64,000 nt of DNA from Candidatus Daviesbacteria bacterium (GTDB lineage Bacteria > Patescibacteriota > Microgenomatia > Daviesbacterales > UBA10151): assembly GCA_016184225.1 (NCBI GenBank), contig JACPDA010000005.1, positions 67,590 through 131,589 on the forward strand, written 5' to 3'. Position 1 is the stretch's first letter; every line of letters starts with the position of its first letter. Shown here piece by piece: positions 9,173-62,263 of the stretch. The translations under genes and the position numbers were made by a program. The notes under the pieces were generated by a model, which had not been told where the DNA came from, did not search any database, and worked only from the letters and a program-made list of their open reading frames with translations.

Positions 9173-11039
9173 TATTGGCACCGGCACAAATTTACAAGCC
9201 ATTATTGATGGGGTTAAGTCCGGGCAAATTACTGCCAGTATTGTAGCTGTTATAAGCGATACCCCGGATGCCAAAGGCTTAGAGCGGGCAAAAAAATACA
9301 AGTTACCGATTGAAGTAGTTTCCAAAAAAGAAAACCTGTTGCCTCTTTTGAAAAAATTAGATCCGGATTATGTCTGCCTGGCCGGATGGAAGCAGATTAT
9401 TCTAGACAGCGTGATTGATGCATTTCCCAACCGGATTTTAAATACCCATCCGGGGTTAATACCAGACAGTATGGATGGGGTTGTAAAAAACCCGGATGAA
9501 ACCGAGGCATTGTGGAATAAAGGAAAAATGACCGATAAAGCGGTACGAAATTTTCTGGAAACTAAAGCCACTTACGCCGGATGCACGAATCACTTTTTAT
9601 CGCTTGAATTTGATTTTGGCCCGGTGTTGGGCAGGTGTTTTGAAAAAATCAAAAAAGGAGACACAATTGAATCTTTATATAAAAGATTAAAGGTAAAGGA
9701 AAATAAATTATATGTGGATGTTTTAGCTAAGTTAGTGCTTTCCAAAACAGTTATGGTCATTGACGGTGGAGGCAGAGGGGCGGCGTTAGTTGATAAATAT
9801 GCTCAGTCTAAAAAGGTATCTAGAATACTGGTTGTACCAGGTAATGATTTGATGCAAGTAAATACTAAAAAGCCGGTTATCACATACCAAAATCTTAAAA
9901 CCACCAGTATTCCTGAAATTCTAAAAATTTGTCAAAAAGAGAAAGTAGATTTGGTAGATGTAGCTCAAGATAATGCAGTAGAAGCTGGGTTGGTAGATCG
10001 ATTGGCGGAAATTGGTATTAATGTATTCGGTCCTACAAGAAAAGCAGGACAGATTGAATGGGATAAGGCCTGGGCCAGGAAATTCATGGTTAAATATCAA
10101 ATTCCAACTCCGAAGTTTCACGCTTTTAATTCAACAAAAGAAGGAATAGATTTTGTCAAAAAATATCCTGATTCAAAATGGTTTGTCAAAGCATCTGGGT
10201 TAGCAGAAGGAAAAGGGGCGATACCGGCATCAACTATTAATGAAGCCATTACAGCTATTGAACAAATGCAAAAGTTTGGAAAGTCCGGAGAAACTTATCT
10301 TTTAGAAGAGTGGTTGATCGGGGAGGAATTTTCCGCATTTGCCCTAAGTGATGGAAAAGAATTTAAAATGGTCGGTTTTGCACAGGACCATAAAAGAGTA
10401 AATGATGGGGACCAGGGAGAAAATACAGGAGGGATGGGTTGTGTTTCCAATCCTTTAATAATTGACAAAAATATCAGAAAACAAACAGAAAACATTTTCA
10501 TAAAAGTAATAGATGGGTTAAAAGAAGAGGGACGGCCATATAAAGGAGTTTTGTATTTGGGAGGGATTGTGGTTGAAGGAAAGGTGTTTATTATAGAATT
10601 CAATGCCAGATGGGGAGATCCTGAGGCAGAGGCGGTACTACCTTCAATACAAAATAATCTTTTTGATTTAGCAAACACAATTAATCTGGGCGGATTAAAG
10701 AAATTAAAAATAAGAATTGATAAAAAAGTAAGAGTGGTGATTGCAGCAACAGCAAAAGGTTATCCGGTAGATTATAAATCAGTGAGGGGTAAAAAAGTTT
10801 TAGGGATTGATAAGGTAAAGGAGACCGGAGTAAAAATTTATGGATCAGGTATTAAAAAAGTGGATTCAGGTTATACAGTTAATGGCGGAAGAGTTTTGTA
10901 TATAGTTGGCGAAGGGAAAAATGTTATAGAGGCAAGAGAAAGAGCTTACAAGGCAATGAGGCTGATTAGCATTGAAGGAAATAACTTGCATTACAGAACA
11001 GACATTGGCTGGCGTGACCTAGAAAGGATAAAAAGATGA
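9144..11039 (+). CDS. purN-purD: Fused GAR transformylase (PurN) and GAR synthetase (PurD)
   Basis: N-terminal PurN (KIAVLISNIGTGTNLQAI, NTHPGLIP, EFDFGPVLG) runs straight into PurD ATP-grasp (VMVIDGGGRGAALVDKY). Start moved to the MKKIAVL methionine at 9144. Confidence 0.8.
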   Translation: MKKIAVLISNIGTGTNLQAIIDGVKSGQITASIVAVISDTPDAKGLERAKKYKLPIEVVSKKENLLPLLKKLDPDYVCLAGWKQIILDSVIDAFPNRILNTHPGLIPDSMDGVVKNPDETEALWNKGKMTDKAVRNFLETKATYAGCTNHFLSLEFDFGPVLGRCFEKIKKGDTIESLYKRLKVKENKLYVDVLAKLVLSKTVMVIDGGGRGAALVDKYAQSKKVSRILVVPGNDLMQVNTKKPVITYQNLKTTSIPEILKICQKEKVDLVDVAQDNAVEAGLVDRLAEIGINVFGPTRKAGQIEWDKAWARKFMVKYQIPTPKFHAFNSTKEGIDFVKKYPDSKWFVKASGLAEGKGAIPASTINEAITAIEQMQKFGKSGETYLLEEWLIGEEFSAFALSDGKEFKMVGFAQDHKRVNDGDQGENTGGMGCVSNPLIIDKNIRKQTENIFIKVIDGLKEEGRPYKGVLYLGGIVVEGKVFIIEFNARWGDPEAEAVLPSIQNNLFDLANTINLGGLKKLKIRIDKKVRVVIAATAKGYPVDYKSVRGKKVLGIDKVKETGVKIYGSGIKKVDSGYTVNGGRVLYIVGEGKNVIEARERAYKAMRLISIEGNNLHYRTDIGWRDLERIKR

Positions 11040-13858
11040 TACAGAAGATAAGAGTGCAAACAATTGGACAACCCAATATTAAAGTTTACCGGTTGGAAGG
11101 GATATCAGTAAAAGATGCTAAAATTCTGGCTGAAAAATTATTGTCAGAGCGAATTAATCAAAAATACACAATAAATCAGCCTATTGCCCGCGGCAAAGTT
11201 ATTGAAATCGCCTATAAACCTGGTGTGATGAATCCGGAGGTGGTATCGATAACCAAAGCTGCATCTGATTTGGGGATTAAACTTATTTCCTGCGACAGTT
11301 CCATTGAATACCTCAGTCAAAAAGTTTCCTTTAATCCTTTAACAGAACACATAATTACAGAAGAACCAAAAACTCTGATTTTAAAAGCTAAACCCGGAAA
11401 GACACAAATTATTTCTATAAGAAATTTGACTGACCAGCAGTTGTTGGATTTATCCAAAGATACGCTTTTCCTTAATTTGGAAGAGATGAAAAAAGTCCAG
11501 AAGTATTTCCAAAAAATAAAAAGAGATCCGTCAGATTTGGAGCTTGAGACTTTAGCCCAAACTTGGAGTGAGCATTCCGGCCATAAAACTTTTAAAGCGG
11601 ATTTAATAATAGACGGTAAGGAAAAAGAACCCCTGATGACTCGGCTGAAAAAGGAAGCCTTAAAACATGATAAAAATATTGTTTCTGCCTTTGTTGATAA
11701 TTCCGGTGTGATGGATTTTTACGACGGTTTTGGGATTTGCGGTAAAGTAGAAACTCATAATGCCCCTTCAGCAATCGAACCTTACGGCGGGGCCATGACT
11801 GGTTCAGGCGGAGTATTCCGGGATATTGCTGCTACTGGTAAAGGCGCAAAAAACATTGCCTCAACAGATGTCTTTTGTTTTGCTCCATTGGATTTATCAG
11901 CTAATGAATTGCCCATGGGGTGTTTGCCGCCTGAATATTTACTAAAAAGGGTTGTGGCCGGTGTCAGGGATTATGGTAATAGGATGGGAATTCCCACTAA
12001 TAATGGCTCAGTTCATTTTCACAAAGATTTCCGGGCCAAGCCTTCGGTGATTGTAGGGGCCTTTGGAATTGTTCCCAAAAAATATGCCAAAAAGGAAAAG
12101 CCAAAAGTGGAAGATCTGATAATTACAATCGGCGGCAGAACAGGTAGGGATGGAATTCATGGGGCTACATTTTCTTCCGGAGAAATGACTGAGAAAACAA
12201 TTGAAGTGCATTCTTCCGCAGTCCAAATTGGCAATGCTATTGAAGAAAAAAGGATGTTTGATGCGCTATTGGAGGCGCGTGATCAGGATTTAATAAGGTT
12301 GGTGCAGGATTGCGGCGGAGGAGGATTTTCCTCAGCAATTGGGGAAATAGGTGAGGAGTTGGGGGTCTTGATTGACCTTAAAAATGCTCCTTTAAAATAT
12401 CAGGGTTTAGCTCCTTGGGAAATTTGGATGTCAGAGTCACAAGAGCGGATGATTGTGGTTTTAGAAAAAATAAACCTGAAGAAATTTGAGGATATTTGTA
12501 AAAAGTACAATGTGGAATTTGCAGTTTTGGGAAAGTTTGATGGAAGTAAGAAATTGAATGTGACTTTTGAAGGTAAAGTAGCTGGTGATTTAGACATGCA
12601 ATTTCTTCATCATGGGTTACCAAAAAGGATTCTAATAGCAAAAAAATCAAATCGTCATTCTGGGGAGCAAAGCGACTCCAGAATCAAAAAAGGATCCTGG
12701 ACAAGCCAGGATGACAGAGTGGAACAGCCTAAGACTGAAAGAGAATGGATAAAGGTTTTAGAAAAAGTGCTAGCTCATGGAAATGTTAATTCCAAAGAAC
12801 CAATTGTTAGATTGTATGATCATTCAGTTCAAGGGACAAATGATCTGCAGTCTTATTCGGGAACTAATTTAGATGGGCCAAATGATTCACCGGTTCTCCG
12901 CCCTTTTCTTGATAAGAAGTATGGCATGGTAATTTCCCATGGATTAAATCCTGTCTTAAATAATATAGATCCGTATTGGGGGAGCATCTGGGCGGCAACA
13001 GAAGCACTCTCCAATTTTGTAGCAGTCGGAGGGAATTACAAAGAAGCTTGCTTAATTAATAATTATATTTGGCCATTTCCGGATGAGCAGTCTCTTTGGT
13101 CTTTAGATAGGTCGGTTGATGCGGTTGTAGATTTTATGAAAACTTTCAAGATTCCTGTAATTTCTGGGAAAGACAGTTTGTCCTCGTCTTACAGAAGCAA
13201 AGATGGAAAAGTAATTAAAATCCCACCTGTACTTTGTATCTCCGTTTTGGGAAAAATTCCTGATGCCGGAAAAACTGTTACTGCAGATTTTAAACGCAGT
13301 GGTTCAACAATTGTTTTAGTAGGTAAAATGGATAAGAATCTTGGAGGCTCTGTTTATTATCAAGTACTTTACCCTGAGCGAGCGGAGCAAGTCGAAGGGC
13401 CAAAAGTTGATTTGAAGATTTTGCCAAAGACTTTTGATGCAATTTGCAAAGGGATACAGACTGGTAAGATTCTATCTTCCCATGATGTTTCGGAAGGTGG
13501 CGTAATTGGGGCTATTTTTGAAATGTGTGTAGGCGGAGGAATGGGAGCGACCATTCACCTCGGAGGAGTAACTTCGTCACACCTCCGAGGTGACCGAATG
13601 GGCTCCTCGGAGGTGGAATTCTTGTTTAATGAAACAGCAGGGTGTTTTATTGTGGAGGTGGAAAATGAAAGTATGGCAAAACAACTTTTTAAGAATGTGC
13701 CATTTAGGATTTTAGGTAAAACAAAAGAAGGAAATAAAATGGAAATATATGGAAATAAGACAAGCTTGCCGCTTCGCGATAAAAAGAAATTATTTGTTGT
13801 GGATGTAAATGATTTGAAGAAAGTTTGGCAGGAACCAATGAGGAGGTTATTCCCATGA
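11036..13858 (+). CDS. purL: FGAM synthase synthetase subunit PurL with a PurS-like N-terminal domain
   Basis: The AIRS-like PurL core (HSGHKTFKA…NAPSAIEPYGGAMTG) is preceded by about 170 aa resembling the PurS / large-PurL N-terminus (YKPGVMNPEVVSITKAASDLGI). It contains an in-frame repeat-element insert (RHSGEQSDSRIKKGSWTSQDD). Confidence 0.85.
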   Translation: MIQKIRVQTIGQPNIKVYRLEGISVKDAKILAEKLLSERINQKYTINQPIARGKVIEIAYKPGVMNPEVVSITKAASDLGIKLISCDSSIEYLSQKVSFNPLTEHIITEEPKTLILKAKPGKTQIISIRNLTDQQLLDLSKDTLFLNLEEMKKVQKYFQKIKRDPSDLELETLAQTWSEHSGHKTFKADLIIDGKEKEPLMTRLKKEALKHDKNIVSAFVDNSGVMDFYDGFGICGKVETHNAPSAIEPYGGAMTGSGGVFRDIAATGKGAKNIASTDVFCFAPLDLSANELPMGCLPPEYLLKRVVAGVRDYGNRMGIPTNNGSVHFHKDFRAKPSVIVGAFGIVPKKYAKKEKPKVEDLIITIGGRTGRDGIHGATFSSGEMTEKTIEVHSSAVQIGNAIEEKRMFDALLEARDQDLIRLVQDCGGGGFSSAIGEIGEELGVLIDLKNAPLKYQGLAPWEIWMSESQERMIVVLEKINLKKFEDICKKYNVEFAVLGKFDGSKKLNVTFEGKVAGDLDMQFLHHGLPKRILIAKKSNRHSGEQSDSRIKKGSWTSQDDRVEQPKTEREWIKVLEKVLAHGNVNSKEPIVRLYDHSVQGTNDLQSYSGTNLDGPNDSPVLRPFLDKKYGMVISHGLNPVLNNIDPYWGSIWAATEALSNFVAVGGNYKEACLINNYIWPFPDEQSLWSLDRSVDAVVDFMKTFKIPVISGKDSLSSSYRSKDGKVIKIPPVLCISVLGKIPDAGKTVTADFKRSGSTIVLVGKMDKNLGGSVYYQVLYPERAEQVEGPKVDLKILPKTFDAICKGIQTGKILSSHDVSEGGVIGAIFEMCVGGGMGATIHLGGVTSSHLRGDRMGSSEVEFLFNETAGCFIVEVENESMAKQLFKNVPFRILGKTKEGNKMEIYGNKTSLPLRDKKKLFVVDVNDLKKVWQEPMRRLFP
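12654..12715. repeat. Dispersed palindromic repeat family 2 (GTCATTCTGG…GACTCCAGAATC…GATYCTGGACAAGCCAGRATGAC), in-frame in purL
   Basis: gtcattctggggagcaaagcgactccagaatcaaaaaaggatcctggacaagccaggatgac. Confidence 0.75.
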
Positions 13859-19183: not shown

Positions 19184-20271
19184 AAAATAAACAATATACC
19201 ATTGCTGTTTTAGGTTCTCATTCTGCTTTAGATGTATGCCGTGGGGCTAAGGATTTAGGATTTAAGACACTAGTTATTTGTAAGAAGGGTAGAGAAAAAA
19301 CATACAAAGATTATTTTGCATCTGAAGGGGAACTGGGTTGTGTAGATGAAGTGATTGTGTTGGATGAATTCAAGGATATATTAAGCGAGAAAGTCCAGCA
19401 AGAACTTCTTAAGAGAAATTGTATTTTTATTCCACACAGATCTTTTGAAGTTTACATAAATGACTATAATGCGATTGAGAAAAAGTTTAAGGTGCCGATG
19501 TTCGGCAACAGGTTTTTGCTTAAAGCGGAAGAGCGGGGAGTGAAACCAAACCAGTATGATCTGCTCGACGCTGCCAAGATTCGTTACCCAAAGCAGTATA
19601 AGGATCCCAAGGAAATAGATAGACTTTGTATCGTTAAAGTGTTGGAAAAAGAACGCGGTTTTGAAAGGGCATTTTTCTTGGCCGAAAATTATGAGGACTT
19701 TGTTATGCATGCATCAAATGCAATTTCAGCTAATAGAATTACAAAACAACAATTAGAAAAAGCTGTCATTGAGGAGTTTATTTTTGGGGTGCAAGTTAAT
19801 TTTAATTTCTTTTATGACCCTATTAATAATAGGTTAGAATTAATTGGAACAGATACTAGAAGGCAAACAAATATTGAAGGGCTTATTAAAACTCCCGCTC
19901 CTTACCAGCAATCTATTATGGCAAGAACGCAGATCAAATATGAGGAAGCAGGTCATATTGCCGTTACAGTTTTGGAGTCTATGCTTGAGGATGCATTTGC
20001 CATAGGGGAAAGATTTGTTGAAGCTACTCAGAAGTTGTTTAAACCAGGAGTCATTGGGCCGTTTGGTTTACAAACAGTTATAACCGCCGGCCCGCCCAAA
20101 AAAGAGATTATTGTTTTTGATGTTTCCCCGAGAATGCCGGGATCTCCCGGGATATTGGCCACACCTTACAGTGGATATTTATATGGACAAAATATTTCTA
20201 TGGGAAAAAGAGTAGCCATGGAGATTAAGGAAGCGATTGAAAGAGGTCAGCTGGAAAGGATATTAACTTAA
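19180..20271 (+). CDS. purP: Second PurP-like paralog (FAICAR synthetase family)
   Basis: Same family as the upstream gene (LGSHSALDVCRGAK, FIPHRSF, NFFYDP…ELIGTDTRRQTN), in tandem with a 4-nt overlap. Confidence 0.75.
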   Translation: MKNKQYTIAVLGSHSALDVCRGAKDLGFKTLVICKKGREKTYKDYFASEGELGCVDEVIVLDEFKDILSEKVQQELLKRNCIFIPHRSFEVYINDYNAIEKKFKVPMFGNRFLLKAEERGVKPNQYDLLDAAKIRYPKQYKDPKEIDRLCIVKVLEKERGFERAFFLAENYEDFVMHASNAISANRITKQQLEKAVIEEFIFGVQVNFNFFYDPINNRLELIGTDTRRQTNIEGLIKTPAPYQQSIMARTQIKYEEAGHIAVTVLESMLEDAFAIGERFVEATQKLFKPGVIGPFGLQTVITAGPPKKEIIVFDVSPRMPGSPGILATPYSGYLYGQNISMGKRVAMEIKEAIERGQLERILT

Positions 20272-20272
20272 T

Positions 20273-21802
20273 ATGGAAAAATATGCCTTACTCTCGGTAT
20301 ATAATAAGGAAGGTATATCTGACTTTGCAAAGGTATTAGAGAAGTTGGGATACAAAATTATCTCCACTGGCGGTACTTATGAACAGTTAAAAAAGAACGG
20401 TATTGATGTTACCCCAATTGATGAGATAACCGGTAACCCCAGAGACTCCTTTGACGGCCGGATGAAAACTATTAGTTTTCAAATTGAGTCGGGAATTTTG
20501 TTTGACCGGAGAAATCCTAAGCATGTAGAAGAGGCCCAAAAATTGGGGGTACCGCAAATAAACATTGTGATATGCAACCTTTATCCGTTTGAAGAAAAGC
20601 CTGGCATTGAAACAATCGATGTCGGAGGGCCAACCATGATTAGGGCTGCAGCTAAAAATCATGTAAATGTTTTGGTGGTGGTTAGTCCTGCTGATTATGG
20701 TATGGTGGCAGATGCTTTAGAAAAGGGGAAAGTTACAGAAAAATTAAGGAAAGAATTGGCTGCTAAAGCTTTTTATCATCTATCTTTTTACGATTCTCAA
20801 ATCGGTAACTTTTTCAGTAGCGAGAGGTTTCCCAAAGAACTCACTATACCTCTTAGAAAAACTAATGTTCTCCGCTATGGGGAAAATCCCCATCAAGAAG
20901 GAGCCCTCTATCTTATGCCAAAAACCAATTCTCCTTTTGCAAAATTAAAACACCTTTGGGGAAGGGAACTTTCCGGCACCAACATTGGTGATATTCAAGC
21001 AGGACTGGAAACTGTCAGACAATTTAAGGAACCGGCAGCCGCAGTTATAAAACATTTAAGCCCTTGCGGAATAGCTACCGGCAAAGATGCTTTCGAGGCT
21101 CTGTACCGGGCAACCGAAGCAGACCCTGTTTCCGCATTTGGAGGGGTAGTGGTATTAAATAAGCCCATGGATTTAGAGGCTGCAAAGAATATTGCCACGT
21201 TTAAAAATGAAAGAGAAGGAAATACTGATATTGTGGCAGTTCCATCAATTTCGCCTGATGCTTTGGAATTACTGAAAAAAGTCAGAAAGAGTATGGGAGT
21301 TTATACATTTGGTGAAATTCCAAGGGAAAGAACTGAAAGATGGGACTTAAAATATTTTGCCGGAGCAGTATTACTTCAGGATTTTGATGATGATGTTGAC
21401 AAAAGTTTTAAGGCCTGGAAAGTTGTAACTAGAAATAAACCGACAGAGAAACAACTTGAGCAAATGAAATTTGGTTTTAAAGCAGTGAAAGCTGTCAGGT
21501 CTAATGCCGTGATAGTAATTGATAAAGATATTCCGATGACCCGCGGGATTGGTTCCGGACAAACTTCACGCGTAGGTGCTACCAAGATTGCCCTGGAGCA
21601 AGCAGGAAAATTAGCAAAAGGTGGTATCCTAATAAGTGACAGCTTTTTTCCGTTTGAAGATTCAGTGGAAATGGCAGCAAAATACGGAATCGGAGCCATT
21701 CTGGAGCAAGGGGGTTCTGTTAATGATCAGGCATCTGTGACGGCCGCAGATAAGGCAGGTATCCCGATGGTATTTACCGGAAGGAGGGCATTCAGACACT
21801 AA
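20273..21802 (+). CDS. purH: Bifunctional AICAR transformylase / IMP cyclohydrolase
   Basis: MGS-like N-domain (ALLSVYNKEGI) plus an AICARFT C-domain, about 509 aa. Confidence 0.85.
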   Translation: MEKYALLSVYNKEGISDFAKVLEKLGYKIISTGGTYEQLKKNGIDVTPIDEITGNPRDSFDGRMKTISFQIESGILFDRRNPKHVEEAQKLGVPQINIVICNLYPFEEKPGIETIDVGGPTMIRAAAKNHVNVLVVVSPADYGMVADALEKGKVTEKLRKELAAKAFYHLSFYDSQIGNFFSSERFPKELTIPLRKTNVLRYGENPHQEGALYLMPKTNSPFAKLKHLWGRELSGTNIGDIQAGLETVRQFKEPAAAVIKHLSPCGIATGKDAFEALYRATEADPVSAFGGVVVLNKPMDLEAAKNIATFKNEREGNTDIVAVPSISPDALELLKKVRKSMGVYTFGEIPRERTERWDLKYFAGAVLLQDFDDDVDKSFKAWKVVTRNKPTEKQLEQMKFGFKAVKAVRSNAVIVIDKDIPMTRGIGSGQTSRVGATKIALEQAGKLAKGGILISDSFFPFEDSVEMAAKYGIGAILEQGGSVNDQASVTAADKAGIPMVFTGRRAFRH

Positions 21803-23214
21803 TGAAAGTGCAAAGTGCAAAGTGCAAAGTGCAAAGTTATGATAGTTACCAATCACCATTTTCTTGGAGATATGGATCAGAAAAAATGAGAGAGATATTC
21901 TCAGAAGAGAAGAAATATAAACTTTGGAGAAAGATTTGGGTAGCTCTTGCAAAAGCACAAGCAAAAGAAGGTTTGGTATCAAAAGAAGAACTGGCAGACC
22001 TGGAAAAAAATCAAGACAACATAGATATCGAACGGATTTGGGAAATTGAAAAAGATACCTGGCATGACACCGTAGCGGCAATAAAAGAATTTGCTGAGAA
22101 AGCCAAAATCGGCGGCGGCAAAATACACCTCGGTGCCACTTCCATGGATATTTCCGATAATGCTGAAACTATTAGGATTAGGGAAGCCTTGGATATAGTT
22201 GAAAAAAGACTCGTAGCTTTGCTACTCGCGCTTTCTTCGAAAGTAAAAAAATATGCTAACTTTCCCTGTATGGGGTATACCCATCTGCAGCCGGCAGAAC
22301 CAACAACCTTAGGATATAGATTTGCTTTCTACGCCCAGGATCTTTTAATGGATCTGGAACTTTTAAGATTTGTTAAGAAGAATTTAAAGAGTAAAGGTTT
22401 AAAGGGCGCAGTCGGAACATCAGCCAGTTATGTTAAATTGTTGGATAGGAAAAAAGCAGAAGAGATGGAAGTTAGGATTTTAAGGGAGTTAGGGGTAGAA
22501 GCATTTGAAATTACCAATCAAACTGCGTCCAGAAAGATAGAATTTTGGGTAGCCAGCTTACTCGCGGGAGTTGCACAGTCCTTGAATAAATTTGCCTTTG
22601 ATTTAAGGATTATGCAGTCACCCGGGTTTGGTGAATGGCAGGAGCCGTTTGGAGTTTTGCAGGTTGGTTCATCCGCAATGCCTTTTAAGAAAAATCCTAT
22701 TAAAGCAGAACAAATTTGTTCTTTGTCCAGGCTGGTGGTGAATTTATCAAAGACTGCCTGGGATAATGCTTCCATGATGTTACTTGAGCGGACTCTGGAT
22801 GATTCGGCTAACAGAAGAGTAGTAATTCCGGAAATGTTTTTGGCAATTGATGAAATGCTAAATTCTACCGCAAATATTGTTGAAGGATTAATTGTAAATG
22901 ACAAACAAATAATGAGAAATTTGGAAAAATATTGGCCTTTTTCTGCAACAGAAGGAATTATTCTGGAAGCAGTAAAACAGGGGGCAGACAGACAAAAAAT
23001 GCATGAGGCGCTCAGAGAAATTGCCATGAGAGCGTGGAAGTCTATCCAAGAAGGGAATCCAAATCCAATACAGGATTTATTAGAAGAAAATTCCACTATT
23101 AAACAGTACTTAAAACCAATAGAAATAATAGAAGTTCTGGATGCAAAAAATCATGTTGGTAATGCAAAAGAAAAAGCTTTGACTTTGGCGGATCAAATTG
23201 ATAGATTGACATAA
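21802..23214 (+). CDS. purB: Adenylosuccinate lyase
   Basis: Fumarate-lyase family with a PurB N-terminus (SWRYGSEKMREIF). The first codons are a heptanucleotide tandem repeat (MKVQSAKCKVQS). Confidence 0.85.
   Translation: MKVQSAKCKVQSYDSYQSPFSWRYGSEKMREIFSEEKKYKLWRKIWVALAKAQAKEGLVSKEELADLEKNQDNIDIERIWEIEKDTWHDTVAAIKEFAEKAKIGGGKIHLGATSMDISDNAETIRIREALDIVEKRLVALLLALSSKVKKYANFPCMGYTHLQPAEPTTLGYRFAFYAQDLLMDLELLRFVKKNLKSKGLKGAVGTSASYVKLLDRKKAEEMEVRILRELGVEAFEITNQTASRKIEFWVASLLAGVAQSLNKFAFDLRIMQSPGFGEWQEPFGVLQVGSSAMPFKKNPIKAEQICSLSRLVVNLSKTAWDNASMMLLERTLDDSANRRVVIPEMFLAIDEMLNSTANIVEGLIVNDKQIMRNLEKYWPFSATEGIILEAVKQGADRQKMHEALREIAMRAWKSIQEGNPNPIQDLLEENSTIKQYLKPIEIIEVLDAKNHVGNAKEKALTLADQIDRLT
21804..21838 (+). 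repeat. Heptanucleotide tandem repeat (CAAAGTG x about 5) within the first codons of purB
   Basis: gaaagtgcaaagtgcaaagtgcaaagtgcaaagtt. Confidence 0.8.
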
Positions 23215-24955: not shown

Positions 24956-25456
24956 ATGATAAAGAAAAATTCATTAAGTTATTTTTTGCTTCTTGGTTTG
25001 GAGAAATCGATTCAGAGTGGCGTTTTGCTAATTGATTTTGCCTACAATTCCCACTGGTATGTTTATCCCGGGCGAGACCCAAGAGATATAAATTACGGCG
25101 CTCTTTATCAGGCAGTTAGGGATTTGCGTGAGAAAGGCTTTATTGAAACCGAAAAAGACGGCAGAAAAATTATGTTGAAATTAACAGATAAAGGTAGGGA
25201 AGAGGCAATAGTAAAAAAGCTCTTAGCAGAAGAGAAATGGGATAGGAAGTGGAGAATTGTTATTTTCGATGTTCCGGAAAAGCACCGGAAATTAAGAAAA
25301 ATCTTGCGGAGTAAACTTAGGGAGTGGGAATTTGAGCCTTGGCAGAAAAGTGTTTGGGCAGGTAAAAAGGATGTAACAAGTCCATTGCGAAATTTTATTA
25401 AAGAGGTTGGTTTATCTGATTGGGTAAGGGTGGTAGTCGGTGCTGATGTAGCTTAG
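24956..25456 (+). CDS. Short PaaX-family-like transcriptional regulator (wHTH plus WDGKW-motif domain)
   Basis: Matches the PaaX N-terminus/middle region (…KWDRKWRIVIFDVPEKHRKLRKILRSKL…QKSVWAG). Paralog of 59013..59507. Confidence 0.6.
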   Translation: MIKKNSLSYFLLLGLEKSIQSGVLLIDFAYNSHWYVYPGRDPRDINYGALYQAVRDLREKGFIETEKDGRKIMLKLTDKGREEAIVKKLLAEEKWDRKWRIVIFDVPEKHRKLRKILRSKLREWEFEPWQKSVWAGKKDVTSPLRNFIKEVGLSDWVRVVVGADVA

Positions 25457-44017: not shown

Positions 44018-44097
44018 TATAGAATAGTGACTAGTCGCTAGAGTCTAGAGTCAAGTAATTATTTTCTAGACTCTAGATTCTAGACACTTGACTCTAA
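44018..44097. repeat. Intergenic repeat family 4 (ATAGTGACTAG…GAGTCAAG…TCTAGACTCTAGA…ACTCTA), copy A after rpsR
   Basis: About 80 bp, partly palindromic and rich in tctaga/gagtc. Confidence 0.6.
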
Positions 44098-48552: not shown

Positions 48553-49279
48553 TAATAAGTACCCTTTGTTTTTTGGCAAGGTCGGTTTTGACCTCTACTT
48601 TTGCTTGGGGAAAATATTTTTGGGCTTCATTTGCTGCCAGTTCTCCGTGGGTATAGTCAATTTCTCCGATAATCAATTTAGGTTTCCAACCTACACTCCA
48701 GGAGTGTAAGTTCGAATTCACTCCTGGAGTGGAAAGCTGTTTGATCTGTTGGAAAAGTTTCCGGTAAAGTTCAAAGCCATCTTCTCCGCCGTCCAAGGCA
48801 ACATGTGGTTCAAAGTCTTTGACTGAAGAGTCTAAATAAGGAATCCTGGCAGAAGGGATGTAAGGTAAGTTAGTGACAATGACTAGGTTACAGGTTTCAG
48901 GGTACAGGTTACAGTTTAACCCGGAAAGCAAATTACTTTTTAAAAAAGTGATTTTATCTTCAACTCCATGGAGTTTGGCATTTTGTCTGGCTACTTTTAA
49001 AGCTTTCTGGGAAATATCTGAAGCAATAATAGTTACGTTTACACCCTTGGGGTGGAGGCTTAGGTTTTTGGCAATGGAAATGGCAATGTTGCCGGAGCCG
49101 GTGCCAAGGTCTAAAATGAGGTTACAGGTTTCAGGGTACAGGTTACAATAATTTAAAACTTCATCTACTAAAAGTTCTGTTTCCGGGCGGGGGATTAGAA
49201 CATCAGGAGTGACTTTGAAACGTAATTTGTAAAATTCAACCCAACCTTTAATGTACCCAGAGGGCTTTGATGATGTCAT
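48530..49279 (-). CDS. prmC: Release-factor glutamine N5-methyltransferase
   Basis: SAM motif (LDLGTGSG) and an NPPY-type motif (TNLPY). Carries two in-frame copies of a 29-bp repeat ([10 protein letters not shown]). Confidence 0.8.
48886..48914. repeat. Repeat family 3 (GGTTACAGGTTTCAGGGTACAGGTTACAG), in-frame in prmC
   Basis: Translated on the minus strand as [10 protein letters not shown]. Confidence 0.7.
49120..49147. repeat. Family 3 second copy, in-frame in prmC
   Basis: ggttacaggtttcagggtacaggttaca, translated [10 protein letters not shown]. Confidence 0.7.
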
Positions 49280-50198: not shown

Positions 50199-50203
50199 AA
50201 AAG

Positions 50204-50272
50204 TTTACAGGGTACAGGTTTTAGGTTACAGATAGGTGAAGCTACTGTCAACTGTTCACTGTAACCTGTCAC
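50204..50272. repeat. Family 3 variant copy plus an inverted partial copy in the rpmE-prfA spacer, ending 6 nt upstream of the prfA start codon
   Basis: tttacagggtacaggttttaggttacag … ctgtaacctgtcacc. Confidence 0.55.
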
Positions 50273-50605: not shown

Positions 50606-50697
50606 GCATAGTATAGCAAAAATAGTGACTAGAGTCGAGAGTCAAGAGTCTAGACTTAAAAATTCCTAAACTCTAGAACCTAGCAACTAGACTCTAT
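50606..50697. repeat. Family 4 copy B between eamA and rpmE
   Basis: Shares the atagtgactag / gagtcaag / tctagac / actctaga / actcta blocks with copy A. Confidence 0.6.
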
Positions 50698-58818: not shown

Positions 58819-58902
58819 TGCCGAGGGAGGGAGTCGAACCCTCATGATCTTTAGGACCAAAGGTTTTTGAGACCTTCGCGTCTGCCATTCCGCCACCTCG
58901 GC
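58819..58902 (-). tRNA. tRNA-Leu (anticodon CAA), type II with a long variable arm; CCA not encoded
   Basis: The reverse complement folds into a cloverleaf: acceptor GCCGAGG/CCUCGGC, anticodon loop CUCAAAA, T-arm GAGGG-UUCGACU-CCCUC, discriminator A. Confidence 0.8.
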
Positions 58903-59012: not shown

Positions 59013-59507
59013 ATGGCACGACCACCAAGCAAGCGAAAGGTTCTAACAGATTTAGTTCTTTTAGCTTTAGAGAAATCAATTGACGGGTATGTAGCGTTTG
59101 AAGATTTCATTTACAATCCACTGCTAGAAAGACCTGTTAAAAAATCAGTCCTTTCTCAGGTTATAAAAAGACTTCGGGATCAAGGTTTAGTGGAGTTTAT
59201 TAGTGATAATGAGTTAATTTTAAGATTGACTGATTCTGGTAGAGATAAAGCGCTATGGAAGAAGATGGCTCTCGGAGATGAGAAATGGGATGGGAAATGG
59301 CGGCTGGTAATATGGGATGTGCCGGAAAAAAGGAGATTGGCTAGGGATTTACTAAGGTTTAAACTTAAACAGTTAGGTTTTAAACAGTGGCAAAAAAGTG
59401 TTTGGGCTTCAAAGATAAACTGTACTAAGTTATTACGAGATTTTATCAAGCAAGTAGGAATAGAGGATTGGGTGATGGTGATTGAATCCGATAACGTAGG
59501 AGTTTAA
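59013..59507 (+). CDS. Short PaaX-family-like transcriptional regulator (paralog of 24956..25456)
   Basis: KWDGKWRLVIWDVPEKRRLARDLL…QKSVWASK; N-terminal wHTH. Confidence 0.6.
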   Translation: MARPPSKRKVLTDLVLLALEKSIDGYVAFEDFIYNPLLERPVKKSVLSQVIKRLRDQGLVEFISDNELILRLTDSGRDKALWKKMALGDEKWDGKWRLVIWDVPEKRRLARDLLRFKLKQLGFKQWQKSVWASKINCTKLLRDFIKQVGIEDWVMVIESDNVGV

Positions 59508-59590: not shown

Positions 59591-62263
59591 ATGAATAAAT
59601 CTACAAAAAATGAAGTCAGGCTTCCGGTGCATGTTAAGCCTGAGCGGTACAGGATTATGCTCCGGCCGGATCTGGAGGGGTTTACATTTTACGGCGAAGA
59701 AACAATTTTTTTGGTTTTAGAAAAGCCCACCAAACAAATTACCCTGCATGCTGCTGAGCTGGAGATAGAATCGGCAGAATTTATACATGGTAACAAAGAG
59801 GTATGGGCTGGGAGGATTAATTATGATAAAAAAGCGGAAACTGCTACATTTACTTTTGCTAAAAATATTCAAAAAGGCAAAGGACAATTAAAGCTTGCTT
59901 TTAAGGGAATCTTGAATGATAAAATGCGGGGCTTTTACCGTTCCCGCTATGAAGTGAGTGGAGTATCAAAGCATCTGGCTACTACCCAGTTTGAATCAAC
60001 TGATGCCAGGAGGGCTTTTCCCAGCTTTGATGAACCCGCTCAAAAGGCTGTTTTCGATGTGACTTTAGTGGTTCCTGCCAAGACTGTGGCTATCTCCAAC
60101 ACCATTGAATCTAACATCCGAGAACATGAAAGCGGTTACAAGGTAATAGAGTTTGCCCCAACCCCGAAAATGTCTACTTATCTTTTAGCCTTTATTGTGG
60201 GGGAGTTTGAGAGTGTAGAAGTGCAAAGTGCAAAGGGCAAAGTGATAAGGGTTTTTACCACACCGGGTAAAAAAGAACAAGCCAGATTTGCCCTTGATGT
60301 AGCCGGAAAATGCTTGGATTTCTATGAACAATACTTTGGTATCTCTTACCCTTTGCCGGTGTTGGATCTTATTGCAATACCTGATTTTGCTGCCGGGGCC
60401 ATGGAAAACTGGGGAGCAGTGACATATCGCGAATCTTTGCTGTTAATTGATGAGGAGGCTTCCTCCACTGCCAATAAACAATGGGTGGCTTTAGTGATTG
60501 CCCATGAGCTGGCTCACCAGTGGTTTGGCAATTTAGTCACTATGGAGTGGTGGACCCACCTTTGGTTAAATGAAGGTTTTGCCTCATTTATTGAATTCTT
60601 GGCTATTGACCATATTTTCCCGGAGTGGGATATCTGGACCCAATTTGTAGGGAGCGAAATGGGTGAAGCTTTCTCGCTGGACGGCTTAAAAAACACCCAC
60701 CCGATTGAGGTGGAGGTGGGCCATCCGGCCGAGATTTCCGAGATTTTTGATAAGGTCAGCTATTCCAAAGGAGCCTCAATTCTGCGTATGCTTATGTCTT
60801 ATCTGGGGGAAAAAGATTTTCAAAAAGGGTTGCAATTTTATCTTAAAAAACATGCTTATGGAAATGCGGAGACCCAGGATTTGTGGAAAGCATTGGAAGA
60901 AGTTTCCGGGAAACCTGTTGGCAAGCTGATGAAAAACTGGACCTCAAAGCCCGGACATCCGGTGATAAGGTTACAGTCAACAGGCAGCAGGCTACAGTTA
61001 ACACAAAGCAGGTTTTTCTCCTCTCCAATTTCTAAAAGAAAGACGAAAGATGGTGCTGTCTGGAGTATTCCTATCACTGTCATTCTGGGGAGTTCTGCAA
61101 GGCAGAACGACTCCAGAATCGATTCTGGACAAGCCAGAATGACTAATCTATTAATGAATAAAAAATCCATGACTATTTCAGGAATTAAAGATAACGAGTG
61201 GATTAAATTAAATGCCGGGGAGGCGTCATTAGTTAGAGTTGATTATCCGCAGGAATATCTCAAGAAGCTGGAAGAGGCGGTTAAGAATGGAAAACTGCCT
61301 GCAGTGGACAGGTTGGGCCTAATCAGAGATTCTTTCTCTTTGGCAGAGTCAGGTCAAAGCCCAACCACTTTATCTTTGGAGCTGACTCAAAGTTACATGG
61401 GTGAAGAAGATTATACTGTTTGGGCTGAGCTGACGGGAAAACTGCTGCAGCTTGATTCTCTTTTAGCTCTGGAACCATTTTATCCGGATTTCAAAAAATA
61501 CGGCATAAAGATTTATCAAGATATAGGGGGTAAGCTAGGCTGGAAAGCAAGAAAAGGAGAAAAGCATACAGATTCCCTGCTGCGGGGTATGGTTTTAAAT
61601 ATGCTGGGAGGGTTTGGAGATGGGGAGACTATAAAGGTGGCTCAGGAATTATTTAGAGCTTATGTAGTACGTCATTCTGGGGAGCGCAGCGACTCCAGAA
61701 TCAAAGGGGGGGATTCTGGACAAGCCAGAATGACAAGTAGTCACGGCATTCATCCTGATTTAAAGGGAGTTGTTTACAATTTGGTGGCGGAAAACGGTGG
61801 AAAAAAAGAATTCGATACTTTGATGAAGATGTACAAGCAAGAGGAAAATCAACAGGAAAAAGATCGGATTGGCCGGGCTTTGGGGAAGTTTAAAATTAAA
61901 GCCCTTCTTTCTAAAACCCTGGATTTTTCTATTTCCAAGCATGTGAGATTCCAAAACAGTCTGCAAATTATTGCAGCTGTTTGGGCTAATCCGGTCGGCC
62001 GTTATCTGGCCTGGGAGTTTGTAAAAAAGAATTGGAAATTGTTAAAAGATAGGTATGCAGGGGGCCATTATTTTACCAAAGTTTTTGGACCGGCCGGAAG
62101 CTTTACCAAAAAAGTTGATGCCAAAGATATTGAATCCTTTGTCAAGAAAAATCCTGTCCCGGAAGCCAAAAGAACCATTGCCCAAGCCTTGGAACAGATT
62201 TATTCCAATGCAGAGTGGCTAAAAAGGGATAGACAGAAAATCAAAGATTTTCTGTTAAGATAA
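59591..62263 (+). CDS. pepN: Aminopeptidase N (M1 family)
   Basis: GAMEN and HELAHQW…E zinc motifs. Carries two in-frame palindromic repeat inserts (SSARQNDSRIDSGQARMT; RHSGERSDSRIKGGDSGQARMTS). Confidence 0.9.
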   Translation: MNKSTKNEVRLPVHVKPERYRIMLRPDLEGFTFYGEETIFLVLEKPTKQITLHAAELEIESAEFIHGNKEVWAGRINYDKKAETATFTFAKNIQKGKGQLKLAFKGILNDKMRGFYRSRYEVSGVSKHLATTQFESTDARRAFPSFDEPAQKAVFDVTLVVPAKTVAISNTIESNIREHESGYKVIEFAPTPKMSTYLLAFIVGEFESVEVQSAKGKVIRVFTTPGKKEQARFALDVAGKCLDFYEQYFGISYPLPVLDLIAIPDFAAGAMENWGAVTYRESLLLIDEEASSTANKQWVALVIAHELAHQWFGNLVTMEWWTHLWLNEGFASFIEFLAIDHIFPEWDIWTQFVGSEMGEAFSLDGLKNTHPIEVEVGHPAEISEIFDKVSYSKGASILRMLMSYLGEKDFQKGLQFYLKKHAYGNAETQDLWKALEEVSGKPVGKLMKNWTSKPGHPVIRLQSTGSRLQLTQSRFFSSPISKRKTKDGAVWSIPITVILGSSARQNDSRIDSGQARMTNLLMNKKSMTISGIKDNEWIKLNAGEASLVRVDYPQEYLKKLEEAVKNGKLPAVDRLGLIRDSFSLAESGQSPTTLSLELTQSYMGEEDYTVWAELTGKLLQLDSLLALEPFYPDFKKYGIKIYQDIGGKLGWKARKGEKHTDSLLRGMVLNMLGGFGDGETIKVAQELFRAYVVRHSGERSDSRIKGGDSGQARMTSSHGIHPDLKGVVYNLVAENGGKKEFDTLMKMYKQEENQQEKDRIGRALGKFKIKALLSKTLDFSISKHVRFQNSLQIIAAVWANPVGRYLAWEFVKKNWKLLKDRYAGGHYFTKVFGPAGSFTKKVDAKDIESFVKKNPVPEAKRTIAQALEQIYSNAEWLKRDRQKIKDFLLR
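61079..61143. repeat. Family 2 copy, in-frame in pepN (variant left arm)
   Basis: gtcattctggggagttctgcaaggcagaacgactccagaatcgattctggacaagccagaatgac. Confidence 0.75.
61671..61734. repeat. Family 2 copy, in-frame in pepN (near-perfect palindrome)
   Basis: gtcattctggggagcgcagcgactccagaatcaaagggggggattctggacaagccagaatgac. Confidence 0.8.

Follow-up and report, generated by a model that had tools for sequence, protein, structure and literature searches.

Paired hairpins read in frame within purL and pepN of a Daviesbacteria genome and the GIY-YIG nuclease gene found between such hairpins in related loci

Rickettsia palindromic elements (RPEs) were reportedly described by Ogata et al. in 2000. 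In-frame palindromes of Rickettsia have been known since that time, and we know of no enzyme assigned to them. An element resembling RPEs was noticed within the reading frame of purL in a 64-kb stretch of DNA (hereinafter the window, whose numbering is used for all positions). The window belongs to a metagenome-assembled genome (MAG) of Candidatus Daviesbacteria, a member of Microgenomates within the candidate phyla radiation (CPR), with G+C content of about 40%; a PepN protein in NCBI (P0121) is identical to that of the window at 100%. The first-pass annotation, which was made from the letters of the window, had supposed a CPR-like host. Here this element is described as a pair of hairpins with two relatives in pepN of the same window and many others elsewhere, some of which enclose a GIY-YIG nuclease gene.

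In a 2024 review RPEs are still given as the extreme case of in-frame insertion (PMC10969869). Two of them, RPE-4 and RPE-6 of R. conorii, were assigned to the superfamily of CGTC-tagged repetitive extragenic palindromic (REP) sequences by Di Nocera, De Gregorio and Rocco, whose survey of 2013 revealed such repeats in five phyla, mostly in alpha-proteobacteria, and stated that these repeats have no dedicated enzyme (PMC3733652). They are composed of a CGTC or TGTC tag (variant CCTC), a stem of 8–9 bp starting with A-T and T-A pairs, a loop of 4–5 nt and a short unpaired tail; they often form inverted dimers, the spacer of which varies and may be structured, and some intragenic dimers encode 20–30 amino acids (PMC3733652). 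The third closely related system is the Ssn-related motif (SRM), represented in Neisseria by NTS, together with its nuclease SsnA of 94 amino acids (Chenal et al. 2025, PMC11893778). SsnA binds the hairpin solely as single-stranded DNA (ssDNA) and solely on one strand, and cuts it a few bases upstream; cutting depends most strongly on the three nucleotides preceding the palindrome and binding on the C that follows it, while the identity of the loop is dispensable and its extensions are tolerated (PMC11893778). The words “Patescibacteria” and “Candidate” are absent from the text of that paper.

Structure of the hairpin pair

The element in purL (copy A, GTCATTCTGGGGAGCAAAGCGACTCCAGAATCAAAAAAGGATCCTGGACAAGCCAGGATGAC) comprises 62 nt located exactly at 12654–12715 of the plus strand, or 12653–12716 with the tag bases C at position −1 and A at position +1. 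It is translated in the purL frame as RHSGEQSDSRIKKGSWTSQDD, which supplies about 21 extra amino acids to phosphoribosylformylglycinamidine (FGAM) synthase, a protein of 940 residues encoded at 11036–13858 of the plus strand and carrying Pfam domains AIRS, AIRS_C and FGAR-AT linker. Two other copies, B (61079–61143, 65 nt) and C (61671–61734, 64 nt), both on the plus strand, are situated within pepN (59591–62263, plus strand), identified by Pfam as a gene of M1 aminopeptidase with 890 residues. Both fall into loops of this protein and are translated as VILGSSARQNDSRIDSGQARMT and RHSGERSDSRIKGGDSGQARMT, respectively, so that all three copies lie on the coding strand of their host genes. The position, frame and repeat status of the 62-bp palindrome proposed by the first-pass annotation were thus borne out. 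The “near identity” ascribed to its pepN relatives holds for three modules common to copies A, B and C (GTCATTCTGGGGAG, CGACTCCAGAATC and GATYCTGGACAAGCCAGRATGAC), but not for one loop and one linker, which vary in both sequence and length. The full pattern of the element was never found in 100 shuffles of the sequence, and the 14-mer GTCATTCTGGGGAG, which makes up its first 14 bases, was observed three times against 0.41 expected.

Palindromic as the element is, it represents two adjacent hairpins closed by GTC and GAC rather than the one long imperfect palindrome initially suggested. Reading from the left, GTC is followed by the stem arm ATTCTGGGG, A, an inner hairpin, GA, the opposite arm CTCCAGAAT and C, then by a linker, G, the right hairpin ATYCTGG-ACAAG-CCAGRAT and terminal GAC. 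Taken from the opposite strand the right hairpin reads GTCATTCTGGCTTGTCCAGAATC and displays the same framework as the left one, namely (C/T)GTC, ATTCTGG…CCAGAAT and C. One and the same motif thus occurs twice in the element, inverted and once per strand, with the tags outermost. In copy A the left motif, U1, occupies 12654–12685 of the plus strand and consists of GTC, the ATTCTGGGG/CTCCAGAAT stem, which encloses the mini-hairpin GCAAAGC, and unpaired C. The variable linker AAAAAAG (12686–12692) takes the position held by a GIY-YIG gene in full-length relatives, and the right motif, U2, covers 12693–12715 of the minus strand (reverse complement GTCATCCTGGCTTGTCCAGGATC) with a compensatory T>C/A>G change in its stem. 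U1 of copy B corresponds to 61079–61120, with inner hairpin TTCTGCAAGGCAGAA, and is joined directly to U2 at 61121–61143, while copy C has U1 at 61671–61702, a linker at 61703–61711 and U2 at 61712–61734.

The same organization was registered in every full copy found so far: U1 on the plus strand and U2 on the minus strand are separated by 0–29 nt. The terminal inverted repeats are GTCATTCTGG/CCAGAATGAC, and the elements measure 55–120 bp. The U1 stem (ATTCTGGGG/CTCCAGAAT) contains 9 bp including one G·T, and its distal part of 10–60 nt bears the nested hairpin, while the U2 stem (ATTCTGG/CCAGAAT) has 7 bp. Copies A–C, as well as 33 of 98 unbiased copies from metagenomes, have ACAAG as a 5-nt loop of U2. 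Both the consensus of the model and each of copies A–C show GTC before the stem and C after it (…CCAGAATC). Two loci depart from the usual arrangement: in Roizmanbacteria LBST01000001 (L006, approximately 230–300, 5′ of an Ndk-like gene) the motifs abut tag to tag in the order reverse to that of the window, so that …CCAGAATGAC is followed by GTCATTCTGG…, and in locus L026 the right hairpin is tandemly duplicated. Within the window at least two reading frames are used, as seen from the peptides RHSGE…WTSQDD (A), VILGS…SGQARMT (B) and RHSGE…SGQARMT (C), which means that conservation operates at the level of DNA and not of protein.

Covariance model R1, trained on 11 minimal copies of 55 nt, scored copy A with its tag bases at 70.4 bits (E = 7.8e-21) and found no full-length matches in the window except copies A–C. 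A single hairpin belonging to a sister family (TGTCATCCTGAGCGAAGCGAAGGATC) was additionally revealed by this model at 1716–1741 of the plus strand (20.5 bits, E = 1.9e-4). This hairpin sits at a gene junction, starting within the 3′ end of the open reading frame (ORF) 884–1726 and ending a few bases 5′ of the in-frame ATG at 1747 (ORF 1636–2025). No other GTCAT…ATGAC elements were detected in the window, where a weak pair at 19765–19818 looks like chance, and no Rfam family matched the element, the best hit within 12600–12770 in the window scan having E = 1.8.

When 91 copies from other genomes were aligned, 96.8% of cells proved to be paired compared with 36–48% in slid-partner controls. The GTC tag was invariant (91/91), the first stem pair was AU in 89–90 and the second UA in all 91 copies. 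At the third pair the right hairpin (P4) has UA in 77, CG in 11 and GC in 2 copies and the left one (P1) UA in 88 and CG in 3; two pairs of the inner hairpin showed GC 60, CG 19, AU 4 and CG 43, UA 13. Since the two stems change independently, as also seen in copy A, where the T>C/A>G pair affects the right hairpin only, the data support local hairpins over long-range pairing. The inner hairpin is mostly of GCGAAGC type, with a G-N-A triloop in 32 of 40 minimal copies, and a 2-bp stem closed by a GNA triloop is the mark of unusually stable mini-hairpins of DNA, not RNA. Among 125 copies from the genome set the tagged strand folded better than its complement in 110 cases with DNA parameters and in 103 with RNA parameters. 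Position −1 was occupied by C (79) or T (36) in 115 of them, and position +1 by G (59) or A (54) in 113. Apart from this Y and R, which are the tags themselves, no fixed target was seen. No target-site duplication was found either, flanking direct repeats of at least 2 nt being present in 7% of copies against 3% in shuffled sequences.

The GIY-YIG gene between the hairpins

Twelve GIY-YIG ORFs were found by tblastn in the fetched loci. The link to this gene, which the first-pass annotation did not include, places the element in a system described before. Eleven of the ORFs have the left end of the superfamily (GTCATYC…, or its GTCATCCCCAC variant in locus L159) upstream, no farther than about 110 nt, and a right end finishing with GRATGAC follows most of them. 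The order U1–ORF–U2 is clear in loci L128 and L156, where an ORF of 90–98 codons begins within 5–25 nt of the left hairpin and directly adjoins the right one. Around some ORFs the ends are those of sister families (GTCATCCCCAC…GGGAATGAC, GTCATTGCGAG…CTCGCAATGAC and GTCATCCCGAC…CGGAATGAC). The encoded domain is GIY-YIG of Pfam (PF01541, E = 1e-12 to 1e-16); no NCBIfam model matched the protein and the Protein Data Bank gave only weak UPF0213 matches. The protein collection contains at least 2451 relatives; those with names originate from Levy- and Woykebacteria.

In 80 of the 120 closest homologs the protein ends with …ILDKPE, which is encoded as ATT CTG GAC AAG CCA GAA TGA. Hence, the ORF runs into the right hairpin and its stop codon is the TGA of the terminal ATGAC. 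Miniature elements carry the very 3′ end of an ssn gene, stop codon included, and this end of the ORF explains why their ACAAG loop is so conserved; the frame stopped by this TGA is the sole one closed to host genes. Two loci, L132 (metagenome Ga0208375_1000006) and L108, have ssn-like ORFs that do not stop in the right hairpin but pass it in the DSGQ…RMT frame, and that of L132 continues into a further element, forming extended fusion ORFs.

Over 90 amino acids the CPR protein shares 46% identity (E = 3e-29) with the product of an N. gonorrhoeae gene, which bears canonical NTS CGTCATTCCCGCGCAGGCGGGAATC on both sides and matches SsnA as described. Moreover, the requirements of SsnA listed above correspond point by point to the pattern of conservation in CPR elements. 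Since related loci have the same two hairpins around the GIY-YIG gene, the window copies are their miniature derivatives devoid of an ORF. Based on these data we consider it likely that the element is an inverted pair of SRM or CGTC-tagged REP hairpins, derived from a hairpin–ssn–hairpin unit of about 400 nt and subject to recognition by its nuclease.

By analogy with Neisseria, an Ssn homolog encoded by the CPR genome would recognise in ssDNA the folded motif with its (C/T)GTC tag, stem starting with A-T, T-A, Y-R and C-G, free-form distal part and unpaired C, and would cut it a few bases 5′ of the tag. Such recognition would explain why the tag, proximal stem and trailing C are near-invariant across Microgenomates, and loops and linkers vary. 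Copies that have entered genes would survive only if their length keeps the frame, no stop codon appears and the affected loop is permissive, and they would be translated as a hydrophilic coil.

Placement in genes and at orthologous sites

The scan of species-representative genomes with a gapped pattern of 24 bases revealed at least 116 stretches, and that of metagenomes with the left half alone at least 138 copies, so that overall more than 250 copies were found in at least 40 Microgenomates genomes and in metagenomes; the 80 genome stretches listed alone belong to about 40 assemblies. Informative names among the matches listed were all those of Microgenomates lineages (Levy-, Roizman-, Gottesman-, Curtiss-, Davies- and Shapirobacteria) or “Patescibacteria group”, with a few unconfirmed automatic labels, such as “uncultured Gammaproteobacteria”. 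The search for copies elsewhere, advised by the first-pass annotation, thus placed the element in dozens of genomes, in many unrelated genes as well as in intergenic DNA. Viral contigs of IMG/VR, inspected with regard to possible phage carriage, gave no matches.

Of the 125 copies in the genome set, 68 (about 54%) are located within long ORFs, 57 in sense and 11 in antisense orientation; the others lie between genes or at their ends. The hosts were read by eye as housekeeping genes, including those of DnaK, ValRS (valS), RecJ, CCA-adding enzyme (with two inserts), Ndk, the beta subunit of ATP synthase, FemAB-like proteins and ABC transporters. Only one copy separates two long ORFs lying in different frames, which argues that intragenic copies are read through rather than spliced. 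Preference for the sense orientation is not due to stop codons, because the number of stop-free frames per element is almost the same (1.37 in sense and 1.38 in antisense). It fits the properties of the peptides: the mean grand average of hydropathy (GRAVY) is −1.13 for stop-free sense frames (−1.26 for those in use) and −0.02 for antisense ones. With more than half of the sampled copies within genes, the elements contribute greatly, and in a way not described before, to differences in protein length in very small CPR genomes, which calls for caution in alignment, annotation and phylogenomics of CPR proteins.

According to the first-pass annotation, the PurL segment should be a clean insertion of about 20 amino acids in a surface loop absent from orthologs. 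It is indeed missing in the closest PurL ortholog (P0001, 80% identity) and, likewise, the closest PepN orthologs have no such segments, which speaks against an ancestral sequence. AlphaFold2 predicts coil with a local confidence score (pLDDT) below 50 for PurL residues 541–560, as well as for PepN residues 505–513 and 699–717. The site in PurL, however, is not a conserved sequence interrupted by the insert but a hypervariable interdomain linker between two PurM-like halves, which aligns to the linker of Thermus PurL (3VIU). In four related Daviesbacteria the same purL position is taken by elements of three different families, which share the right junction (…GGATGAC followed by AGAGTNGAA…), and all of these elements start with GTCATTC and finish with GGATGAC. 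PepN orthologs mostly have WSIPLNGKLMDKK and ELFKKGKIDPDL at the two sites (after about residues 496 and 690), inserts being present in about 16 and 23 of 120, respectively. These inserts belong to several families, start with V-I-L/P, S-L-R, C-H-P or R-H-S and end with M-T, N-D or D-D, as encoded by GTCAT… and …ATGAC, respectively. One more PepN hot spot is located near residue 210. This one and a PurL hot spot near columns 63–67 of the core alignment are empty in the window genes and filled in some orthologs with peptides such as MDSHLRGN, IGIDSRFRGNDS and SRLRGNDSGT, which the NTS-like family ATTCCCGC…GCGGGAAT typically encodes. The empty allele of the site of copy C had no matches in metagenomes.

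Orthologous copies are much more similar than their surroundings. Copy B and its ortholog in locus L103 are identical at 64 of 65 positions with flanks of 74–75%; 59 of 61 positions coincide in the pair L013 and L089 (flanks 65–81%), and 71 of 77 in the pair L001 and L042 (76–79%). At the site of copy C, L103 has another palindrome with the same termini. Where orthologous copies differ, the inner hairpin is affected: the changes are either compensatory (GTGAAAC to ACAAAGT) or exchange it as a whole, by a multiple of 3 nt.

One more palindromic insert was found in purL at 13555–13615. It consists of three interlocking CCTCGGAGG/CACCTCCGAGGTG copies translated as HLGGVTSSHLRGDRMGSSEVE, contains CGTCAC…GGTGAC and looks unrelated to copy A; pLDDT drops below 50 at residues 850–855, and similar peptides (…SHLRGDRM… and …QHLRGGRMDSSEV) occupy the same site in several orthologs. 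Other repeats of the window are the family AGGTTACAGGTTTCAGGGTACAGGTTACA (48885–48913, 49119–49147 and 50202–50230), tandem CAAAGTG units (21797–21847 and 60217–60253) and a palindrome rich in TAGAGTC/TCTAGA (44023–44096 and 50621–50653), one of which may correspond to “family 1” of the first-pass annotation. Segments 25228–25359 and 59276–59407, 34,048 nt apart, are 75–78% alike and probably represent small genes that are paralogous. Read by eye, the initial 54 nt of the former translate to EEKWDRKWRIVIFDVPEK; the latter belongs to ORF 59013–59507 just 5′ of pepN. A tRNA gene on the minus strand (58819–58902) was the sole Rfam match of the window at the gathering threshold.

Alternative explanations and comparison with known systems

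Several observations weigh against the proposed derivation from nuclease-recognised units, or at least against mobility as its part. No ssn-like gene was detected by tblastn in the 64 kb of the window. The published SRM pattern HGTCWYN(0-2)YYVSBRHN(0-5)WNVSBRGN(0-2)RNCYNB, which matches the Neisseria NTS used as a control, was found neither on the two strands of the window nor in copies A–C. No presence/absence polymorphism was found between near-identical genomes, which gives no sign of recent mobility. Association of orientation with GC skew is weak, 58% of copies being on the G-rich strand, and gives little support for replication-coupled insertion into single strands. The lengths of cores within ORFs fall into all three classes modulo 3 (37 with remainder 2, 17 with remainder 1 and 5 with remainder 0), which is not expected for simple precise pasting of a fixed unit. 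Binding and cutting of the hairpins by the CPR nuclease, by which it would drive their spread or maintenance, are put forward by analogy with SsnA, and the same caution applies to the chemistry of insertion. A fixed insert length was rejected, as the spread of remainders is what avoidance of stop codons alone allows and corresponds to no single boundary. Taken together with the lack of target duplication this spread suggests that entry may be imprecise or mediated by recombination at shared ends, selection keeping in-frame products.

Persistence of the copies can also be accounted for by a domesticated function, which competes with the proposed derivation only on this point: selection acting on the host may keep the hairpins as Ssn tags against incoming ssDNA, thus controlling recombination or transformation, as proposed for NTS and SsnA. 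Conservation of orthologous copies far above that of their flanks and the compensatory changes between them speak in its favour, as does the roughly 5-fold lower integration of NTS-bearing DNA caused by SsnA in Neisseria (PMC11893778). The same conservation may, however, arise by gene conversion or by repeated insertion into the same site; the cost inside essential genes is obvious, families replace each other at one site, and the role of a tag is ascribed by analogy. We therefore regard this function as possible but doubtful. With similar reserve one can assume that Ssn and hairpins form an active intragenic system, in which Ssn spreads and renews RPE-type palindromes, or the hairpins serve as single-strand “restriction tags” limiting allele replacement in DNA-scavenging episymbionts. 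The latter would explain conserved cores at orthologous sites despite turnover of adjacent loop residues and interiors. If the former of these two readings holds, Ssn would be the long-sought enzyme of RPE-type in-frame palindromes.

It seems improbable that the element acts as structured RNA affecting stability or processing of mRNA or pausing of ribosomes at domain boundaries. Such a role could be supposed from the prevalence of sense copies (57 versus 11), from the G·U (G·T) pair in P1 kept in 82 of 91 copies and from folding of the sense strand, which is better by 2.2 kcal/mol with RNA parameters; the RNA of copy A, folded as the first-pass annotation had advised, reached −25.3 kcal/mol (z = −4.2). 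But the sense bias is explained by the hydropathy of peptides, the inner stem with its GNA triloop is DNA-like, and no Rfam family corresponds to the element. SsnA of N. meningitidis, in turn, showed no RNA binding (PMC11893778). Excision from RNA, either as a mini-intron or by bypass, was ruled out, since the host frame runs on uninterrupted in spite of core lengths of 62, 64 and 65 nt, and no fixed cuts would fit all three.

[quoted passage not shown] Terminal inverted repeats are indeed present, and the similar end hairpins without target duplication resemble the ends of IS200/IS605, but the lack of duplication contradicts DDE-type MITEs, and the tag is CGTC instead of the GTAG of RAYT-linked REPs (PMC3733652). 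Clustering of 1534 flanking ORFs, a screen that differs from a search with hidden Markov models, revealed no recurrent transposase, the ten clusters of widest distribution being read as housekeeping proteins, while the gene that actually lies between the ends encodes a GIY-YIG nuclease. Finally, ancestral protein sequence or a coding repeat, to which the frame open through every window copy might point, has practically no chance and is already refuted by frame differences, the element being translated in no fewer than two frames. The element is also lacking in the closest orthologs and occurs in intergenic regions and unrelated genes.

The resemblance to RPEs, noticed by the first-pass annotation, was substantiated. 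In both cases palindromes are accommodated in frame in essential genes and translated in permissive surface segments, while the hosts belong to different phyla, RPE-1 is about 150 bp long (PMC10969869) compared with 55–120 bp in CPR, and here at least two frames are used. Since the defining framework of CGTC-tagged REPs is present in the window elements and RPE-4 and RPE-6 were placed in the same superfamily (PMC3733652), this likeness is probably homology and not only analogy. With CGTC-tagged REPs the elements share the tag, the stem of 8–9 bp with its A-T/T-A start, the short unpaired tail, the build of inverted dimers and intragenic coding copies. They differ in outward-facing tags, whereas the wording of the survey implies mostly head-to-head dimers, in the U1 loop of 10–60 nt instead of 4–5 nt and in the CPR host, which that survey does not cover (PMC3733652). 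REP, BIME and REPIN repeats associated with RAYT are similar in their short tagged hairpins, inverted doublets able to fold as one or two hairpins, mosaic modules and a single small enzyme gene bounded by repeats; they are, however, mostly extragenic and combine the GTAG tag with an HUH tyrosine transposase, in contrast to CGTC and a GIY-YIG nuclease here. Our search of the literature for palindromic elements of CPR or their signature peptides found nothing, and the search with short DNA strings returned only primers.

The closest counterpart is the SRM/NTS–SsnA system (PMC11893778), which coincides with the CPR elements in GTC before and C after the palindrome, in the ATTC…GAAT start of the stem, in the free loop and in the motif–gene–motif order, the gene encoding a GIY-YIG protein with a single domain and about 94 amino acids. 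The CPR stem ATTCTGGGG/CTCCAGAAT differs from ATTCCCGCG/GCGGGAAT of NTS, its distal part is a nested mini-hairpin, the ORF usually ends within the right-hand motif, and loop hot spots are shared by several families. The share of copies within genes, such as purL, pepN, dnaK, valS, recJ and that of CCA-adding enzyme, exceeds one half in our sample, as opposed to 2% for NTS of N. meningitidis (PMC11893778). Each family can be considered as a candidate hairpin/nuclease pair with a new ssDNA specificity for use in tools. The data obtained tie together the in-frame palindromes of Rickettsia, the CGTC-tagged REPs left in 2013 without a dedicated transposase and the Ssn nucleases of 2025, and extend the system to CPR, where the published search motif fails. 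The kind of system is already known, and what is new is its CPR host, the nested distal hairpin, the outward orientation of tags, the end of the ORF inside the motif and the intragenic share.

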